Shown in pieces: positions 14,161 through 64,000 of a stretch of 64,000 nucleotides of DNA. Position numbers and translations under genes: made by a program. Below the pieces are notes generated by a model, which was not told the DNA's origin, searched no databases, and saw only the letters and a program-made list of their open reading frames with translations. Position 1 is the first letter of the stretch. Every line of letters starts with the position of its first letter. Source of the stretch: Octopus vulgaris (taxonomy: Eukaryota); NCBI GenBank assembly GCA_951406725.2, contig OX597818.1, positions 120,280,001-120,344,000 on the forward strand, in the 5' to 3' direction.

Positions 14161-14397
14161 TCGAAGTCGATAACTGATACTATGATTCAAATTATTATGG
14201 CGTAAAAAGGAAATAAATCACTACAGTTTTCTTCCTGATTCATTATCATTGGCGGAAATGTAACCTCACAGTAGGTTGCTGCAGTGAAGGATACCAAACA
14301 TACCGCTCAATATTATTATGTACTATAATTGTTTTTGCAGATTAGACTGCTGAAGTATTACAATTCTGACTTTTAGAATTTTGTTAGTGGTAATAGT

Positions 14398-14810
14398 GGA
14401 TCTTTTCGGTTTGAACGGCAGTTTTTAACATAATTTCTAGGTAACTAAAAGATTTAAATCTTCGTATACTGGTAGAATGTGTTTATAAAGCATCTTTTTC
14501 TCTTGGCTTTATTGAGAAATTCTATAGTTTGTAAGATATCTGTTGTTTTTTCTTCAATTTCTGCAATTTCAACCAATCAATGACGTCTATTCAGGTGAAA
14601 ACATTCTGTGCCGTATGAATATGTCCCTCGTTTAAGAAACAGATTGGGTTTATTTACATTTGTGAAGAAAAAAAGATACCCTTCTCCCTACCCCTAACCC
14701 TAACCCTAAAACAGATTGAAATGCAATAGATCGATACTAGGGTCATAATTATGGGTGACAATTTCATATGACACCGCTAGAAAAAACTGCCGTTCAAACC
14801 GAAAAGAGCC
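14398..14810 (+). mobile_element. TIR element (GGATCTTTTCGGTTTGAACGGCAG family) with internal (CCCTAA)3 and a 37-bp flanking direct repeat
   Basis: ~29-bp TIRs; 14361-14397 equals 14811-14847 with 1 mismatch. Confidence 0.9.
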
Positions 14811-15050
14811 CAATTCTGACTTTTAGAATTTTGTTGGTGGTAATAGTTTTTATCTGTTTCTCGATTTAATACCATCACCTAATTTTTGGATAACTTAAAC
14901 AGAATCCATCCTGTTGTATTTCGATCAGGTACCATGTATACCCCCCTAGTCTCGGAGACGCTGTAAACGGTCACAGGCGACTAAACCTTAATAAGAAAAT
15001 TGATATGCAGTTCGAAAATTAATATGCAGTATACTCTTTCAATCAAACTC

Positions 15051-15496: not shown

Positions 15497-16065
15497 AGGT
15501 GGCGAGCTGGCAGAAACGTTAGCACGCCGGGCAAAATGAGTAGCCGTATTTCGTCTGCCGTTACGTTGTGAGTTCAAATTCCGTCGAGGTCGACTTTGCC
15601 TTTCATCCTTTCGGGGTCGATAAATTAAGTACCAGTTACGCACTGGGGGTCGATGTAATCGACTTAATCCGTTTGTCTGTCCTTGTTTGTCCTCTCTGTG
15701 TTTAGCTCCTTGTGGGTAGTAAAGAAATACCTATTTCGTCTGCCCTTACGTTCTGAGTTCAAATTCCGCCGAGGTCGACTTTGCCTTTCATTCTTTCGGG
15801 GTTGATAAATTAAGTACCAGTTACGCACTGGGTCGATGTAATCGACTTAATTCGTTTGTCTGTCCTTGTTTGTCCTCTCTGTGTTTAGCCCCTTGTGGGT
15901 AGTAAAGAAATACGTATTTCGTCTGCCGCTAAGTTCTGAGTTCAAATTCCGCCGATAAATTAAGTAGCAGTTATGCACTGGGGTCGATGTAATCGACTTA
16001 ATACCTATGGCTGTGCTTGTTTGTCCATTCTATGTTTAGCCTCTTGTGGGTTATAAAGAAATAGG
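15497..16065 (+). mobile_element. SINE B trimer (one head plus two headless units)
   Basis: Three tandem bodies; ACTTCAAGATTGAA duplicated on both sides. Confidence 0.9.
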
Positions 16066-24807: not shown

Positions 24808-25340
24808 AGGACAGACAAACGGATTAAGTCGATTATATCGACCCCAGTGCGTAACTGGTACTTATTTAATCGACCCCGAAAGAATGAAAGGCAAAGTCTA
24901 CCTCGGCGGAATTTGAACTCAGAACGTAGCGGCAGACGAAATACTTGTTTCTTTATTACCCACAAGGGGCTAAACACAGAGGGGACAAACAAGGACAGAC
25001 AAACGGATTAAGTCGATTATATCGACCCCAGTGCGTAACTGGTACTTATTTAATCGACCCCGAAAGGATGAAAGGCAAAGCCGACCTCGGCGGAATTTGA
25101 ACTCAGAACGTAGCGGCAGACGAAATACTTGTTTCTTTATTACCCACAAGGGGCCAAACACAGAGGGGACAAACAAGGACAGACAAACGGATTCAGTCGA
25201 TTATATCGACCCGAGTGCGTAACTGGTACTTAATTAATCGACCCCGAAAGGATGAAAGGCAAAGTCGACCTCGGCGGAATTTGAACTCAGAACGCAACGG
25301 CGGACGAAATACCGCTAAACATTTCATCCGGCGTGACAAC
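24808..25340 (-). repeat. Tandem array of SINE B bodies, period 184 bp, about 3 units
   Basis: AGGACAGACAAACGG at 24808, 24992 and 25176. Confidence 0.9.
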
Positions 25341-34276: not shown

Positions 34277-34692
34277 ATTTCTTTACTATCCACAAGGGGC
34301 TAAACACAGAGAGGACAAAAAAGGACAGATAAAGGGGTTAAGTCGATTACATCGACCCAGTGCGAAACTGGTACTTTATTTATCGACCCCGAAAGGATGA
34401 AAGGCAAAGTCGACCTCGGCGGAATTTGAACTCACAACGTAACGACAGACGAAATACCAATTTCCTTATTACCCACAAGGGGCTAAACATAGAGGGGACA
34501 AACAAGGACAGACATAGGTATTAAGTCGATTACATCGACCCCAGTGCGTAACTGGTACTTAATTTATCGACCCCCGAAAGGATGAAAGGCAAAGTCGACC
34601 TCGGCGGAATTTGAACTCACAACGTAACGACAGACGAAATACCGCTAAGCATTTCGCCCGGAGCTCTAACGTTTCTGCCAGCTCGCCGCCTT
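34277..34692 (-). mobile_element. SINE B dimer
   Basis: TSD of about 16-17 bp (ACTGATAGTACATATA) encloses both units. Confidence 0.9.
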
Positions 34693-35348: not shown

Positions 35349-35349
<1 letters not shown>

Positions 35350-36387
35350 TAGCAGTATCGCCCGGCGTTGCTCTGGTTTGTAAGGGAAATAACTATAAAG
35401 CATTTTTAGAGAGTTATAGCCAAAAAATAGCAAAAAAATGGAAAAAAATGATGGTAAATTTTTTTGAGAGTTAAAAAAGGTCGAGTTGCGTCCCCTAGAC
35501 AGTCTGTGGTTTGTGTTTCTGATTCTCGACCCCATGTCGAATTTATCGATTTTTTTCAGAACTGGGGGAACTTTTCAAAATTTTCGCTGCGTTAGTTTTG
35601 AATTATGACATTGGGCTATGTGTGTGTCAAGTTTCATCAGAATCGGTTGAAAGCAGTGGTCAGGGTGAGGGTACAACCAAACAGACACACAGAAACACAC
35701 ACAGACATTGTAGGTACTAAAGAAATATATATATATAATATTCGTAGCCACTTTAACATGGCTGCCCGTTCGAGCGGACTCTACTGTGAATTTTTAACCA
35801 CAATAGGACATCTCCTCTAGCTGGTTAACGGTGCACAGCTGCATCCGATAAAACTGTAAGCAAGGGAGCGAACCCCTACCATCTCCTAGCGACGGGACCA
35901 GTACACCAGTCCTGGTTTCGGGCTATATACGTCTGTTTCCTGTAGTTGTAGGTATGTTATATCTGGAAAAGATGGTTACGAGTGGGGATCCAGTTTTGCG
36001 TGTCATTCATTACTAGCAGTATCGCCCGGCGTTGCTCAGGTTTGTAAGGGAAATAACTATAAAGCATTTTTAGAGAGTTATAGCCAAAAAATGAAAAAAA
36101 AAATGATGGTAAATTTTTTTTGAGAGTTAAAAAAGGTGGAGTTGCGTCCCCTAGACGGTCTGTGGTTTGGGCTTCTGATTCTCGATCCCATGTCGAATTT
36201 ATCGATTTTTTTCAGAACTGGGGGAACTTTTCAAAATTTTCGCTGCGTTAGTTTTGAATTATGACATTGGGCTATGTGTGTGTCAAGTTTCATCAGAATC
36301 GGTTGAAAGCCGTGGTCAGAGTGAGGGTACGAGAAAACAGACACACAGAAAACGCACAGACAAACTGCCGTTTATATATAGAGAGAT
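35349..36387 (-). mobile_element. Two non-autonomous Helitron copies (35349-35706 5'-truncated; 36014-36387 complete) flanking an unrelated ~270-bp block
   Basis: Minus-strand 3' hairpin (GAGCAACGCCGGG) plus CTAG; 5' TCTCTCTATATATAAACGG; the two copies are near-identical. Confidence 0.8.
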
Positions 36388-36630
36388 AAGTAGGTCAATT
36401 CAAGCCGTGTGAGTAAAATTAGGTTGCGGAAACTGTACGGATGCCCGTTGGCTGGATCATGTCCGTAATTCAGATACGGCCCTGATACTATGCCTCAGTA
36501 ATTCAGCTTGCAGATTATCGAAAGAGTACACATGTCTGCTGTGGAATACTCAGTTATTTAGTCATTCAATGAGTGCAACTGTTTGAACATTTGAATATTC
36601 ATCGTCGAAGAAGAAGAAGATCCATTTAAC

Positions 36631-36945
36631 GGATCTTTTCGGTTTGAACGGCAGTTTTTTCTAGCGGTGTCATATGAAATTGTCACCCATAATTATGACC
36701 CTAGAATCGATCTATTGCATTTCAATCTCTTTTAGGATTAGGGTTAGTTAGGGTTAGCTAGGGTTAGGGTTAGGGTTAGGGTTAACTGAAGAAAAAAAAG
36801 CAACAAATATCTAACAAACTATAGAATTTTCTCAATAAAGCCAAGAGAAAAAGATGTTTTATAAACACATTCTACCAGTATACGAAGTTTAAAAGTGTTA
36901 CATGGAAATTATTTTAAAAAGCTGCCGTTCAAACCGAAAAGACCC
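36631..36945 (-). mobile_element. TIR element (same family as 14398) with internal (TTAGGG)n and a 215-bp flanking direct repeat
   Basis: TIR GGATCTTTTCGGTTTGAACGGCAG; 36416-36630 matches 36946-37160. Confidence 0.9.
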
Positions 36946-37374
36946 AAAATAGGTTGCGGAAACTGTACGGATGCCCGTTGGCTGGATCATGCCCGTAATT
37001 CAGATACGGCCCTGATACTATGCCTCAGTAATTCAGCTTGCGGATTATCGAAAGAGTACACGTATCTGCTGTGGAATACTCAGTTATTTAGTCATTCAAT
37101 GAGTGCAACTGTTTGAACATTTGAATATGCATCGTCGAAGTAGATGAAGATCCATTTAACATTTACTACAGTGACTTGTGCGCATTTTGTGTATGTTGGT
37201 AGCTTTTAATTGCTAGCAACCTTACAGGTAGGTATTTAACGTATGCAGTCAGTGTTTGCTGTGATACTCCATCCGCCCTAACCTACAAACAATCTAGATG
37301 TCGTCTGCCTGCCTCTACTGCTCTGTTCTGTTCTGATTATATAAATCTTTAAAACTACAATGTGTGAGCGCGTT

Positions 37375-45870: not shown

Positions 45871-46358
45871 ACAAATCAATATCTAGAAAAGAAATATGAA
45901 GCTTAATTATTCTATTTTTTTTTTCTTTTAGAACTCATTAACCGATCGTGCAAACGATCTTGCGATCTTAAAATTACAAAGCGAACTTAATAACTTCATA
46001 ACGACATCGTTATGCCTGAGCCCTTGGATAAAAATCTATTTTAAACGCCATCTGCTTCATTATCAGCATTCATGCCTTATTCGATATTGTATTTTTTATC
46101 ATGATATCTTCGTTAAAATTGAATAAATTATGCTACATAGTTTTATGAAATGTGAATGATAAAATCAAGTACATGAAAATAGATTGCTTCAGTTGACTTT
46201 GTCAATACTGATACGCTAATTTCAACGATGTGATTTAACTCCAGGTCATTTTAGTTAAAAGATTTTTCAATTGTAACTGACCCATAATTTTTCCTCTTTT
46301 CTTACAATCAGCCTGTCCATTACAACACAATGAGTCCTGTGTTTCTAAGACAGTACAG

Positions 46359-46802
46359 GGATCTTTTCGCTTTGACCGGCAGATTTTTTAAATAATTTCT
46401 TTGTAACTAAACACTTTTAAACTTCGTATACTGGTAGAATGTGATTATAAAAGATCTTTTTCTCTTGGTTTTCTTGAGAAAATTCTGTAGTTTGCCGGTC
46501 AAAGCGAAAAGATCCCTGTACTGTCTTAGAAACACAGGACTCATTGTGTTGTAATGGACAAATTATTGTTGTTGACAAAGATCCGGAGAAATTATAGTCA
46601 CCTCAATAGATGTCATTGATTGGTTGAAATTGCCGAAATGCAGGAGATTAAACAACAATTAACTTACAAACTACAGAATTTTCTCAAGAAAGCCAAGAGA
46701 AAAAGATGTTTTATAAACACATTCTACAAGTATACGGAGTTTAAAAGTGTTTAGTTACAAAGAAATTACTTTTAAAATCTGCCGGACAAAGCGAAAAGAT
46801 CC
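46359..46802. mobile_element. TIR element related to 14398/36631, with 8-bp TSD, ~130-bp inverted arms and an internal inverted copy of its left flank
   Basis: CAGTACAG at 46351-46358 and 46803-46810; TIR GGATCTTTTCGCTTTG. Confidence 0.9.
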
Positions 46803-46960
46803 CAGTACAGTGTAATTTGAGCGAGATTTACTTGCTATTTCTAGCAGCTCGCGTGACTGTAGATTATTAGTTCTTAATAAATGAGTCATTGTATAATTAT
46901 GAAAGGGTTGCAAAAGCAAAGCCACTTACTTTCAGGATATTTAATACAAAGTAAAATGTT

Positions 46961-53837: not shown

Positions 53838-54190
53838 TGAGATATGACAGCAAAGAAAAGCATACATTCACTCTCTGCATGCAATTAGACTCGGAAAGTT
53901 TGTGAGGAACCCATTGACCCAATTTGCTGACTTTTCCGATAGCACACAGGTGTCAATGAATGGTTGAATGACCAAATCCAAGCTTCTCTGCTAGTTCCTC
54001 AACAGTTACGATGATATTTTGTTCCACCAGGGTTTTCAGGATGTCCTTGTCGAGTTCTACAGATCTTTCAGGATGAGGCTCGTCTTCTAGGCTGTAGTTT
54101 ATGGCTCGGGATTTCTGGAACCACCATTGACACTGCCTTACGCTTATTGTCCAATCCCCATATACTGCATTAATATTTTTTGTACTTTGC
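53838..54190 (-). pseudogene. Mariner (Mos1/Hsmar-like) transposase N-terminal fragment
   Basis: INAVYGD..QWWFQK..SLEDEPH..TVEELAEKLGFGHSTIH, then HLCAIGKVSKLGQWVPHKL (WVPHEL motif). Confidence 0.9.
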
Positions 54191-54252
54191 ACACATTTAT
54201 ATTCTGTTATTCTTTTATATGTTTCAGCCTTGAGGTTGTGGCCATGCTGGAT

Positions 54253-54283
<31 letters not shown>

Positions 54284-54433
54284 CTGTCTGTCTGTCTGTC
54301 TGTATGTATATATGTATATGTATGTGTGTGAACAATAATATTTTCAACAGATGTGTTGCAAATGTATCTGATTGTTCTCAAGCTTCAATACTGTGTGTAT
54401 GTGTGTGTGTGTATGTATGTATGTGTATGTATG

Positions 54434-54606: not shown

Positions 54607-55550
54607 ATTACTCTCTTCCAAGAACATTTTCACTCACTCTTAGCTCTTAGCTTCCCATACATTTTACTCATGTATCTATCATCGTCATAGACAGAATACT
54701 TTCACTTTAGTCTTCCTCAAATCACTCTGTCCGCTATTTACTTTCATTTTATTCGTTGCCCACTGTGTGTGTGCGTTTGCGTGTGGTGTAAACCAGACTA
54801 AGAAAAGCATTTGACACACACACCAGAATGTGAGTTTTCTGTAAATTTTGCTTAATTGGAGTTTAAATTTTAAAAACTGGACCTGGCATGACGCGATGCA
54901 TTGTACTCTTAAAAATGCCAGGTAAATTGTAATTGAAGAAATCCTATATTGTAGATTTGTATAACTCCCAAAGGGAGGCAGATAAAATCTGCCTTTTATA
55001 ATAAGAGATTATAAAAGGCAGATTTTATCTGCCTCCCTTTGTAACTTATAGAAATCTACAATATAGGATTTCTTCAATTACAATTTACCTAGCATTTTTA
55101 AGAGTAGAATGCATCGGGTCATGCCAGGTCCAGTTTTTAAAATTTAAACTCCAATTATGCAAAATTTACAGAAAACTCACATTCTGGTGTGTATATCAAA
55201 TGCTTTTCTTAATGTGGTTTACACCACACGCACACGCACACACACACAGTGTGCAACGAATAAAATGAAAGTAAATAGCGACAGAGTGATTTGAGGAAGA
55301 CTAAACTGAAAGTATTTAAACCACTACTCAAAAAATAAAAAAACACAGCAAACAGAAACAAATAAATACATAACGATTTACTCCTCACACAATTTCTTCA
55401 ATTAGAGTTTACCTAAGATTTTTCAAAGTACTCCATTCGGTCATGCCATAATATATTTCTTTCAATTTCACCCCCAATTAAGACAAAATTCAAGAAAACT
55501 CAATATTTTAACATTTCACTCCGAAAGCATTGATGTACATGTGTGCGTGC

Positions 55551-55615
<65 letters not shown>

Positions 55616-57110
55616 ATGGGTTGTGCGACACAGAAAGTGTGGTGTGTAAGTGAAGTGCTTTTGTTAGTGTGTGTAAAGAGACAGACAGAGTGAAAGACAG
55701 AAATAACAACTTTTTTATTCACTTTTTGTAGTGAATGACTGAGAGAGAAAAGAGAGAGAGAGAGGTTATGTATGTATATATGTATGTATGGCTTCAGTGA
55801 CACACACACACAAAAACACATACCTACGTACACCTAAAGCACGCACACACACAAGCGGAGCGCGAACTTCAAAATTTTGGTAGTATTAATTTGCGAGCGT
55901 ACTTCTAAGCGCGCGTAATTGAAAGTTTTCACTATGATATCATCACGTGCGGAAAAATTCGAAGGGTTTTGAACAATTGAGATACACATGTCACGCCTGT
56001 ATTGAAACCATTGCTAAGCTGCCGTAATTGCTTAATTAAGACTTTGTTTAAATTGAAAGGAGCAAATATGTGACGAGGTTGAAAAAAAATACCCCAGAAA
56101 AAAATGTACTGCTGGTATTTATATAATTCACTACTATTTTGCTACAATGTCATGAAAAAGAAAAAATTTAGGTATGTAAATCGAATTCGCCACCCCCTTT
56201 TCCCCGTTCGCGTTTGTGTAAAAAAAATTATTATTTAAGTTTTAAAAATTATTTACTTTGTTCAAGAAATATTAATATTAATTAATTTTCAAGAATTATT
56301 TAATTTTATTCTGTAAAATAGTAATTAATTCATTTATCTGTAAATCCGCGAGGTTGTTACTCAGGCACCTAGAATGGTAACCTTCAACTAACACTATCTC
56401 CTCCGAGACCCTGCGGCGCAAGTTGACCAAAATTGAGAGTATGGTAGAAGAAGGGTTGCTCTTCCTTCCGTAGAACATAAAATTCAAATCGGACCATGTT
56501 AACACCAAAAATTATTTACATCAAAAAGATGCTTTTTTCTATGAAAATCCCTATTTTTTACGATTTTTTCACTGCTGTGTCGCCACTTTTCGGTGTATTT
56601 CGACCAGAAAAATGTTCAAAATTACAAAATTACAATTCCAGCGGGTCGAAACAAACCCGAGCAACGCCGGGCGATACTGCTAGTATATATATATCTCTTA
56701 TTATAAAAGGCAGATTTTATCTGCCTCCCTTTGTCAGTTATAGAAATCTACAATATAGGATTTCTTCAATTACAATTTACCTAGCATTTTTAAGAGTAGA
56801 ATGCATCGGGTTTTGCCAGGTCCAGTTTTTAAAATTTAAACTCCAATTAAGCAAAATTTACAGAAAACTCACATTCTGGTGTGTATGTCAAATGCTTTTC
56901 TTAGTCTGGTTTACAGCACACGCAAACGCACACACACAGTGTGCAACGAATAAAGTGAAACTAGATGTAATATTTGTTTCTGTCTATCACGCTGATAGAT
57001 ACATGAGTAAAATGTATGGCAAGCTAACAGATAAGAGTGAGTGAAAATGTTCTTGGAAGAGAGTAAATAAGCGACAGAGTGATTTGAGGAAGACTAAACT
57101 GAAAGTATGA
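54607..57110. mobile_element. Helitron array: inverted 5' fragment (54607-55008), complete 1.7-kb unit (55008-56683), and a tandem 5' fragment (56694-~57110)
   Basis: Shared 5' TCTCTTATTATAAAAGGCAG; 3' hairpin plus CTAG at 56656-56683. Confidence 0.85.
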
Positions 57111-58261: not shown

Positions 58262-58875
58262 CAAGGAAGAGGAAGCACTTGCCTAAGTCTTCTGGGAATT
58301 CTTGATTTACTGTGCGACTTGCACGGTTTTCCCTTGGGAGTTTCCCCACTACTGAGGAATTGTATTTGTTTAATTTTATTGTTACTATTATTTATTGTCT
58401 TTGCACAGATTCTGTCGCTGGAGATGTACTACGGTGTCAGCTGTTCACTACCAGTGAACTAAGGTAACACTCCTTATTTTCGAGCACCATCCGGAGTATT
58501 CGAGCGGTTCCTAGCAGTGCTGTTTTCTGCAAGTGCTCTACCCTTATTGCAGCCCCTATTTGTTCCATTTACGTCTCAAGATTTTTACTTACTCTTCCTA
58601 GGGCTCCGACAATTATTGGTACTACTACCACATTTTTCAACGACTACAACTGCTTAACCTCCCAAGCTAACCTGTCATATCTATCGACTTTTCTTTCTTC
58701 TTTATCGCATACCTTGTTGTCAGCTGAGCATGCTATATCTATGACCCAGCATCGTTTGCTTTCTTTCTTGATTAACACTGTGTCTGGTTTCCTGTTCTCA
58801 ATCTCATGGTCGCACTGGATCATAAAATCCCATAGGATCTTTGCATTATCATTTTCGATGATGCCATCGGGTTCA
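58262..58875 (-). mobile_element. 5'-truncated R4/Dong-clade LINE (restriction-like endonuclease domain plus 3' UTR) within (TAA)n
   Basis: EPDGIIENDNAKILWDFMIQCDHEIENRKPD..WVIDIAC..K..RY; microsatellite on both sides. Confidence 0.9.
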
Positions 58876-58893
58876 TTATTATTATTATTATTA

Positions 58894-58981
<88 letters not shown>

Positions 58982-59940
58982 TACTACTACTACTACTTAA
59001 AGTCCAGAAATACACAGTCCAGCGATGTATAACCAAATGGAAGGTTTTGTTCGGTAATATTTAATGTGCATCGTTATCTAGCTATTGCGCCAAAGGAATT
59101 GGGAAAGAAGGTGAAAACGTTTGTTAAAGACTGTATCAGGAATGGAGAGAAGGAACTTTGTGGCAACGGAATAAAGAATTTGTAACCAAGCAAGAGAGTC
59201 ATTAGGAAAAACAGATCGTAGAACGAGTTAGATAGAGCCTGGAGAAATAAGGAGAAGGGTGCTTTTCGATATGGAACGGATAAAGAACAAGAAACAGATG
59301 ATGAACAAATAGATAAAAGGCACTGTAGCGTAATATCAAAGTAAAGAGATATACTTATGAATAGTAATAACACATTAAGTGAAGATGATTAAAAGATAGT
59401 CGCGTAGAGAGTTGATGTTATGAAAACAATGACTTTGGTGTTTACAGATCTTACAAAAACGTTGAATGCGGTTACATTAAATGAGATTACAAAGAAGATA
59501 GATTGAGTTATCAATCATATTATCACCCACAAAGTAACAGAAACAAACAATTTGTTAAGAACTGCAAGAACATACTGAGCGATATAAGCCTGGAGGAGAG
59601 AAGGAAGTACGGTAAAAAGAATCATGGTGAAAAATAAGAATGTTAGTGAAGACAGAGGGGAAATAAAAAATGATATTGAAGATAGAGGTAATAAAAGGAA
59701 GAATTGCTGTTTTAGAAATATAAAAAATAAACCAGAAAGATCGATTCAAATCAATGGGAAATGTTGTGAAGTTGATAGGAAGTATAACACAATCAATATA
59801 AATGTATAAAGGGTCTAACAATGGTTATAGAGGAATTAAACTAATTACAAAAACAGTTGAGGTGAAACAGTATGAATAACCAATAAATCAGAATAGGCCA
59901 AAGTATGTGTTTCATCGTGGACTTAGGAAAAAACTCAATA

Positions 59941-62485: not shown

Positions 62486-64000
62486 AAGATCAACTAATGA
62501 TTAATAAAGCCGTAACTGAAGACAGCCACAGAAAGAAGAAAGGCCTCAGTATGGCCTGGATCGACTACAAAAAGGCGTTTTATAGCATCCCCCCACACAT
62601 GGATCCTCGAAACACTAGCCATTAACAAAGTAGCACCAACAATTATAAAATTCATAGGGCTCTCTATGAATAAATGGCAAACAGTGCTACACCTCCAAAC
62701 AAAAGAGGGACTCATGAAAACCAAACCATCCCCATTAGAAGAGGCATATTCCAGGGAGACACGCTCTCTCCACTCCTTTTCTGCTTGGCACTGTCACCTC
62801 TATCTGATATGCTAAATAGAACTGGATGCGGATATAAATGTTACGGCAAAACGATCGGCTACCTTTTATATATGGATGACCTAAAACTATACGCTGCAAA
62901 TGACAAACAGCTGGAAACACTATTAAAGACAGTTCATGGATTTACCAAAGAAATAGATATGAAATTTGGATTAGAAAAATGCGACAAAGTAACCATGAAA
63001 AGAGGAAAACTAGTTAAGAGTAGCAACATCACACTAGATAAAACCAATGAAATAAAAGAATTAGACCAAAGCCAAACTTACAAATCCTTAGGAATCCATG
63101 AACTAGATAAGACACAACACACACAAATGAATGAGAAAATAAAAAAAGAATATTATAGACGAGTTAGATCAATACTAAAAACAGAGCTCAATGCTAAAAA
63201 CAAGATAATAGGTATTAACACTTTAGCTGTCCCAGTTATAAGTTACAGCTACAATATCCTTAACTGGACACTAAATGAACTGACCAAAATAGATAGGAAA
63301 ACAAGAAAAATAATGACAGGATCTAGGAAGCATCACCCAAAATCTGACATAGAAAGACTATATATACAACGTATAGAAGGTGGTAGAGGCCTTATACAGC
63401 TGGAAAACTACTATAAAATAACCACCATAGGACTGCAAAAATATCTACTCCAGAAGGAAGGAAAACTGATACAAATAGCGGCAAAACACGAGCAAAACAA
63501 AAAACTGTTCTCAGTATTTAAGGAAGCTGACTAATACAAACAAGAAATCATACCACCTAATAAATATGAAGAAGAAGAAGAAGAAGAAGAAGAAGAAGAA
63601 GAAGAAGAAGAAGAAGAAGAAGAAGAAGAAGAAGAAGAAGAAACAACAAAAGCTATAAAACAAATGAAATCGAAACTAAAAATAGAACAGCAACGAACCA
63701 TGATAAAACGATGGCAAGAAAAGCCCCTTCATGGCAAATACTGGACTAAACTAAATTTTAAAAAAATAGACAAAGAAAAATCCCAGCAATGGTTGAGAAG
63801 CTCAGGACTCAAAGCAGAGACAGAGGGATTTTTAATTGAAGCACAAGACCAAAGCCTCCCCACCAGAAATTACCAAAAACATGTAATGAAAAGAAATATA
63901 ACAAGTAACTGCAGAATATGTGGAGATGGACAAGAAACAATAAATCATATTATCTCTAGCTGCCCAGTCCTGGCTAAGAAGGAATATATTCACAGACATG
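62486..64000 (+). pseudogene. 5'-truncated R4/Dong-clade non-LTR retrotransposon (RT, thumb, CCHC zinc knuckle); disabled; continues beyond the window
   Basis: AWIDYKKAF, GIFQGDTLSPLLF, YMDDLKLY, KFGLEKC, GGRGL, KPLHG, AQDQSL, CRICGDGQETINHIISSC; two early frameshifts and an in-frame stop at 63532-63534; begins directly after (TAA)n. Confidence 0.92.

Follow-up and report, generated by a model that had tools for sequence, protein, structure and literature searches.

At positions 36416-37160 of the 64-kb window (the whole stretch of Octopus vulgaris DNA analyzed here), a short element with terminal inverted repeats (TIRs) stands between two copies of the same host segment. The locus is made up of the following features.

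36416-36630 (+), left copy of the duplicated target segment, 215 bp
36631-36945 (+), focal element, a non-autonomous, MITE-like TIR DNA transposon of 315 bp, internally deleted relative to the copy at 14398
36631-36660 (+), left TIR of the focal element, 5′-GGATCTTTTCGG...
36732-36784 (+), degenerate TTAGGG tract adjoining a 134-bp internal deletion, from TRF
36916-36945 (-), right TIR of the focal element, 5′-GGGTCTTTTCGG... on the minus strand, 28/30 identical to the left TIR
36946-37160 (+), right copy of the duplicated target segment, 215 bp

The two flanking copies align over 215 bp with exactly eight substitutions and no gaps, in agreement with an earlier note on this DNA that had counted about eight mismatches by eye. 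The differences comprise four transitions (two of them at CpG) and four transversions, and one mismatch falls 4 bp from the end of the repeat. Since the copies differ by substitutions only, two at CpG and none involving a gap, the repeat is best read as an aged duplication and not an assembly echo, as that note had held. Two of the eight differences, at 36607-36618, give the left copy a purer GAA run (GAAGAAGAAGAA vs GAAGTAGATGAA); these are possibly the product of one slippage event, in which case the true substitution divergence would be nearer 6/215. The note had also placed the edges of the duplication at the TIR ends, and they do coincide to the base: the left copy stops at 36630 and GGATCTTTT begins at 36631, while the element stops at 36945 and the right copy begins at 36946. 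Apart from its twin, the 215-bp segment has no significant match in the 64-kb window (nhmmer, next best E=0.03) and no match in Rfam, and its 57-aa open frame has no Pfam match. The TIRs, the short length, the lack of a transposase ORF, and the dispersed copies together identify the element, as judged from sequence, as a non-autonomous TIR DNA transposon of the MITE-like kind.

Family members in the window

The TIR pattern has seven matches in the window, all within three elements (36631-36945, 14398-14810, and 46359-46802), and none in 100 shuffles. The six TIR ends of these elements align with a mean column identity of 87%, and the two TIRs of the focal element match each other at 28/30 positions, as do those of the 14398 copy. 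Element lengths range from 315 to 444 bp, with three copies in 64 kb. The features of the other two members are listed below, where TSD denotes a target-site duplication.

14361-14397 (+), left copy of a 37-bp duplication beside the sister element
14398-14810 (-), sister element of 413 bp in the opposite orientation to the focal one, carrying a native TTAGGG x3 seed at 14686-14709
14811-14847 (+), right copy of the 37-bp duplication, 36/37 identical
46351-46358 (+), left 8-bp TSD, CAGTACAG
46359-46802 (no strand assigned), diverged foldback relative with two right arms as its ends; inverted arms of 136 bp with 9 differences
46493-46560 (-), internal inverted copy of the relative's own left junction (23 bp of TIR and ~45 bp of flank)
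46803-46810 (+), right 8-bp TSD, CAGTACAG, exact copy of the left

With its true right end at 14810, the sister element is bracketed by a direct duplication of 37 bp. The earlier note had described a duplication that precisely brackets one TIR element; the precision is borne out, but the restriction to one element is not, with 37 bp duplicated at the 14398 copy and 8 bp at the 46359 relative. The feature is thus more general than first noted: members of a MITE-like family are bracketed by duplications of 215, 37, and 8 bp, a spread of lengths instead of one short, fixed TSD. Because the 215- and 37-bp segments are unlike in both length and sequence, neither belongs to the element, and the observations support reading the duplication as a target-site feature of the family.

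The right arm of the 46359 relative is 11.5% divergent from the 36631 element. Its internal inverted junction copy is identical to the source at 66/66 tested bases and is therefore younger than the insertion itself. Within 46314-46810, this copy is followed by ~37 bp that match nothing else in the window. The arrangement looks like template-switch filler capture and resembles the cis filler capture by gap repair of animal Pack-TIRs (PMC8277862). This relative demonstrates that secondary rearrangement, with copying of flanking DNA, also occurs in the family.

Stop-to-stop frames overlapping the elements reach 83 aa at most. One right-arm frame is stop-free over 30-44 codons in all three elements (14454-14576 (-), 46620-46754 (+), and 36825-36917 (+)) and encodes a basic KAKRKR stretch. 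Its 44-aa version found no homologue in two protein searches (0 of 1.84 billion in one; longer proteins only in the other), and the open frame is probably due to chance.

TTAGGG tract and internal deletion

An imperfect telomeric tract, placed at 36732-36784 by the earlier note, is called there by TRF. The middle of the 14398 copy, which the note had reported as missing, is indeed lost: in the reverse-complement comparison, the focal copy lacks 134 bp and has 36 additional bp of TTAGGG-type repeat instead. The arm of the foldback relative at 46598 also keeps ~45 bp of this middle, so the loss occurred in the focal copy, in line with the internal deletion that the note had suggested.

The focal tract parses as TTAGGA TTAGGG TTAG TTAGGG TTAG CTAGGG TTAGGG TTAGGG TTAGGG TTA, with proximal units that are degenerate with a 10-bp period and three perfect units at its end. 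At the homologous position, the sister copy carries TTAGGG x3 followed by GTAGGG (tract 14686-14709). Within the window, the 10-mer TTAGGGTTAG or its complement is confined to the focal and 14398 elements; given this confinement and the seed in the sister, the TTAGGG seed is a feature of the element. The 10-bp periodicity suggests that the focal tract expanded from this native seed by slippage. Healing with TTAGGG repeats, the other possibility raised in the note, probably does not account for most of the tract, the seed being native to the 14398 copy and the period 10 bp, but the last three perfect units could also stem from telomerase. Pure de novo telomere healing was rejected because the seed is already present in the sister copy. 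TTAGGG-type tracts occur in many animal non-autonomous transposons; a literature search for native TTAGGG tracts in MITEs found no report.

Frequency of the arrangement

A scan of the window for direct repeats, with a minimum length of 20 bp and a maximum spacer of 3.5 kb, returned 124 pairs. In only two of them, those of 215 and 37 bp, is the spacer bounded by a perfect 20/20 TIR. The next-best TIR, at 14/20, lies in microsatellite DNA. Since only these two pairs bracket a perfect TIR, the long duplication tracks the family and not the repeats of the window in general. With a stricter mismatch penalty and a narrower boundary shift, the scan returned 131 pairs and missed the 215-bp case, the mismatch 4 bp from its end having cut the extension short. 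Of 3000 pairs of positions drawn at random with a spacing of 300-450 bp, 16 have an anchored flank repeat of at least 30 bp and at least 90% identity, against a background that includes the window's own repeats; an anchored exact repeat of at least 8 bp occurs in 5/3000 random pairs.

Long duplications flank 2/3 copies, a fraction with a 95% interval of 0.09-0.99. With the focal copy pre-selected, the probability of a long duplication at one or both of the remaining copies is 0.0008 at an underlying rate of 0.04%, 0.04 at 2%, 0.19 at 10%, and 0.75 at 50%. A rate of 0.04% (3/7611) is reported for maize hAT reversed-ends duplications, a related but different structure (PMC3744419). On these counts, and with n=3, long duplications are probably a trait of the family.

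Age and junctions

Flank divergence amounts to 8/215 (3.7%, 95% CI 1.6-7.2%) at the focal element and 1/37 (2.7%) at the sister, whereas the two elements differ from each other at 4/117 positions in the left arm (3.4%) and at 10/157 positions in the right arm (6.4%), the latter with 5 gaps in addition. The earlier note had tied co-creation of the duplication and the insertion to similar ages of flank and element; run against the sister copy, the comparison of 8/215 with the 4/117 of the left arm gives a Fisher p of 1.0. The divergences are compatible with co-creation, in what is a weak test on two copies with no consensus.

At the four element junctions of the focal and 14398 copies, microhomology is absent between the TIR bases and the sequence expected to follow at the other copy, which favors strand transfer by a transposase over repair. 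The right outer boundary of the 215-bp unit (37153-37166) reads CATTTAAC up to the boundary and ATTTAC beyond it, a 5-bp echo with an empirical null of 0.015 per boundary that is present at 1/5 boundary positions tested. This echo is possibly a remnant of an earlier short (8-bp) TSD and serves as a weak hint. The outer boundaries of the 37-bp duplication have no echo (scores 0 and 1).

Superfamily assignment and comparison with known systems

No transposase for the family was found in the 64-kb window. The Pfam scan covered 150 ORFs (three added by hand, the other 147 drawn from the 150 longest of a filtered set of 215) and gave only a mariner HTH and a reverse transcriptase (RT) above the cut-off, along with three sub-threshold matches; none of the 150 holds a MULE domain. 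Rfam returned 0 matches. In bacterial and archaeal genomes, the TIR matched at three single sites, each lacking both a second TIR and homology to the element body, and these were judged to be chance; plasmids gave one 34-bp match (E=0.009) and nothing meaningful, and phages gave none.

Tc1/mariner, piggyBac, Kolobok, PIF-Harbinger, and Zator elements target and duplicate TA, TTAA, or TWA. The sequences to the left and right of the three elements (TTTAAC and AAAAT, AATAGT and CAATT, GTACAG and CAGTA) have no TA, TTAA, or TWA motif in common, and these five superfamilies were rejected because no such motif is shared at the junction pairs. Of these, piggyBac has a TSD of 4 bp and Zator one of 3 bp (PMC10045372). 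The best lead is MULE, on account of the 8-bp TSD, the foldback arms, and the GGGTCT terminus, with Merlin and hAT as further candidates (PMC5499845, PMC5225508, PMC6446971). MULE/Mutator MITEs such as Muta1 of Aedes aegypti resemble the 46359 relative in its 8-bp TSD and foldback arms of >100 bp, and the Muta1 motif GGGTCTACCC has GGGTCT in common with the right TIR of the focal family, a six-base likeness that is a lead only (PMC5499845). MULE/Mutator TSDs are given as 8-9 bp (PMC5225508). Set against a MULE/Mutator TSD of 8-11 bp, 1/3 elements here has 8 bp and 2/3 do not; against long TIRs of >100 bp, often accompanied by subterminal repeats, the 46359 relative has arms of 136 bp and the other two have TIRs of ~30 bp. 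A subterminal repeat array of the Muta1 type was not called by TRF in any member. Merlin termini are GG. Merlin (PMC10045372) and hAT (PMC3744419) both have the 8-bp TSD that is compatible with the 46359 relative, and Merlin is reported among molluscs mostly from cephalopods (PMC10294476). Long duplications are absent from the descriptions of Merlin and hAT in the extracts of these three papers.

The closest parallel in behavior is bacterial. In IS1549 of Mycobacterium smegmatis and IS1634 of Mycoplasma mycoides, as in the family described here, long and variable target repeats precisely flank a TIR element; their direct repeats span 8-514 bp and, as of 2008, lacked a model for the mechanism (PMC2266710). 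Repeats of this IS1634 type, long and variable in length and known from two members only, are present here at 37 and 215 bp. In contrast, the IS1634 family is bacterial and autonomous, measures 1.5-2 kb, and has ends that start with C (PMC2266710, Table 1), whereas the present family is from an animal, non-autonomous, and starts with GG. Membership in the IS1634 family was rejected given the GG ends and the lack of an ORF or of a prokaryotic homologue. IS1549/IS1634 would accordingly serve as a functional analogue only, no sequence link having been found.

Among eukaryotes, IS481EU of parabasalids is a single DDE family whose members have TSDs of several lengths (PMC10045372). Its TSDs are, however, discrete at ~4/15/25 bp, about one helical turn apart, and come from parabasalids only (PMC10045372), as opposed to the 8, 37, and 215 bp here; membership in IS481EU was rejected because these lengths do not fit ~4, 15, or 25 bp. 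Duplications that are made by a transposase and start exactly at an element end are known from P-element hybrid-element insertion (HEI) and maize Ac reversed-ends transposition. In the Ac case, an element starts each repeat and two elements are present (PMC3744419), unlike the one central element here; a tandem duplication of the Ac type was rejected on the basis of the single element and of outer boundaries without a TIR. In the open-access literature searched, no TIR family of eukaryotes was found to have TSDs that run from tens into hundreds of bases, nor was any eukaryotic TSD above the ~25 bp of IS481EU. Where the extracts of matching papers speak of a "long TSD", the length is 4-10 bp. 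The family may already be catalogued.

Origin of the duplications

Transposition, by one route or another, probably made the duplications. The route preferred here, in which long TSDs of variable length would arise through uncoupled strand transfer and displacement fill-in, is put forward tentatively and by analogy. An autonomous DDE transposase from elsewhere in the genome would mobilize the 315-bp element in trans, and the two element ends would join opposite target strands 215 bp apart. If the two strand-transfer steps are uncoupled, the stagger could range from ~8 bp to hundreds of bp, a variability like that of IS1549/IS1634, and strand-displacement synthesis by the host would fill in the gaps, copying the DNA between the joins. 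Separately, the focal copy would have lost 134 bp internally and its native TTAGGG seed would have expanded, slippage being the probable cause of this expansion. The family could then represent an animal TIR group, possibly of an undescribed lineage, with a transposase that intrinsically makes TSDs of ~8 to >200 bp and forms a eukaryotic counterpart to IS1549/IS1634, a proposal that is plausible but falls somewhat short of even expectation. Both copies of the short-TIR subfamily (36631 and 14398) are flanked by long, precise duplications, of 215 and 37 bp. Against family-wide long TSDs speaks the ordinary 8-bp TSD of the 46359 relative, a member of a diverged subfamily (n=3), and the prior for long TSDs is low, most DDE elements having a fixed or similar TSD length (PMC10045372).

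Long TSDs, HEI, and unequal crossing-over would all give the order unique DNA, copy, element, copy, unique DNA. A single locus does not tell these routes apart, whereas their frequency does. HEI, which Preston et al. reportedly described for P elements in 1996, is a close rival, though somewhat less likely. It would begin with an ordinary element with an 8-bp TSD at one edge of the segment; after replication, a left end from one sister and a right end from the other would insert 215 bp away in the homologue or the sister, with duplicate-element-duplicate as the product and a deletion as the reciprocal product. This anatomy fits, and HEI also predicts precise junctions without microhomology. 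It would likewise suit the clean 8-bp TSD at the 46359 relative, and the original TSD, nibbled back, could survive as the 5-bp echo at the right outer edge, but the outer boundaries in the 37-bp case lack such an echo. HEI is known for P elements, in which it yields flanking rearrangements (PMC3744419, PMC2775673), and one described case retained the element but lost 891 bp of flank (PMC3887531); that it would produce exactly the focal anatomy is derived from the described mechanism. Its frequency would need to be unusually high, two events among three copies in 64 kb being improbable at a rate of 2% or below if the family has no unusual tendency to HEI. Unequal crossing-over would yield the same structure if two haplotypes carried neighboring insertions in the same orientation, each at a different edge of the segment, and ectopic recombination mediated by transposable elements is established (PMC2775673). 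The arms, 3.4% (left) and 6.4% (right) from the sister, are compatible with chimerism, but this contrast amounts to 4 vs 10 substitutions, and the scenario takes two local insertions and a crossover within ~315-410 bp, twice in one window and once with the insertions only 37 bp apart, which makes it improbable.

Repair after insertion, with a break at the element end and adjacent DNA copied by template switching or gap filling, has a precedent in the 66/66 inverted junction copy of the 46359 relative and its likeness to Pack-TIR cis filler capture (PMC8277862). Breakpoints in Pack-TIRs are nonetheless biased internally, and 67.6% have microhomology (PMC8277862), whereas the four direct-repeat junctions here lie exactly at TIR ends, without microhomology and with no surviving 8-bp TSD; the chance that repair accounts for them is slight. 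An assembly artefact, with two haplotypes or reads joined via a repeat, would also leave copies that differ by substitutions if allelic copies were joined in tandem. It is very improbable, considering that the window contains no N, that the copies differ at 3.7% by substitutions only, including CpG decay, and that a second locus has the same anatomy with only 37 bp. Finally, a short interior between two long direct repeats could recall a TRIM or other LTR-type element, with the 215-bp repeats as LTRs and the TIR element as interior. The chance of this is close to nil: the segment has no further copy in the window, the flanking repeat of the sister element is different, and the reading was rejected on account of repeat ends that are AA...AC and not TG...CA and the lack of a 4-6-bp TSD outside the unit.

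Implications

Each superfamily of eukaryotic DNA transposons is regarded as having a TSD length that is all but constant, and in animal cut-and-paste elements it is normally short and fixed. Should long, variable TSDs be genuine in this family, its copies, at three in 64 kb, would offer a large natural length distribution with which uncoupled strand transfer could be tested against hybrid-end insertion. Each insertion would also be a route to small, exon-sized tandem duplications of host DNA throughout the genome, and the family would escape MITE finders that rely on TSDs. If HEI holds instead, the loci would document naturally occurring hybrid-element insertion in an invertebrate, by an otherwise ordinary MITE. 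At the locus itself, evidence for a functional effect is lacking, and no host gene was recognized in the window.

Other repeats in the window

Several other repeats share the window. Two copies of another repeat, 86.5% identical and which we take to be Helentron/HINE-like, lie just upstream of the duplication at 35349-35674 and 36013-36330. Fragments of a mariner transposase HTH and of non-LTR retrotransposons occur at 53956-54384 (-), 58647-59060 (-), and 62674-63531 (+); RT is confirmed in the last, and the frame at 58647-59060 (-), presumably LINE-like, has no Pfam match. Among at least 120 protein matches to the RT fragment, four carry a species name, three of cnidarians and one of a tunicate, at 53-57% identity, which indicates an invertebrate animal as host; the SINE and microsatellite landscape resembles that of an octopus. 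A satellite with a 166-bp unit, together with three arrays in which a SINE-like unit of 183-185 bp is repeated head to tail, occupy 1-1354, 15545-15955, 24808-25312, and 34277-34643. At 54736-56966, inverted arms of 239-274 bp share 95% identity, and one pair, only 5 bp apart, forms a near-perfect palindrome.
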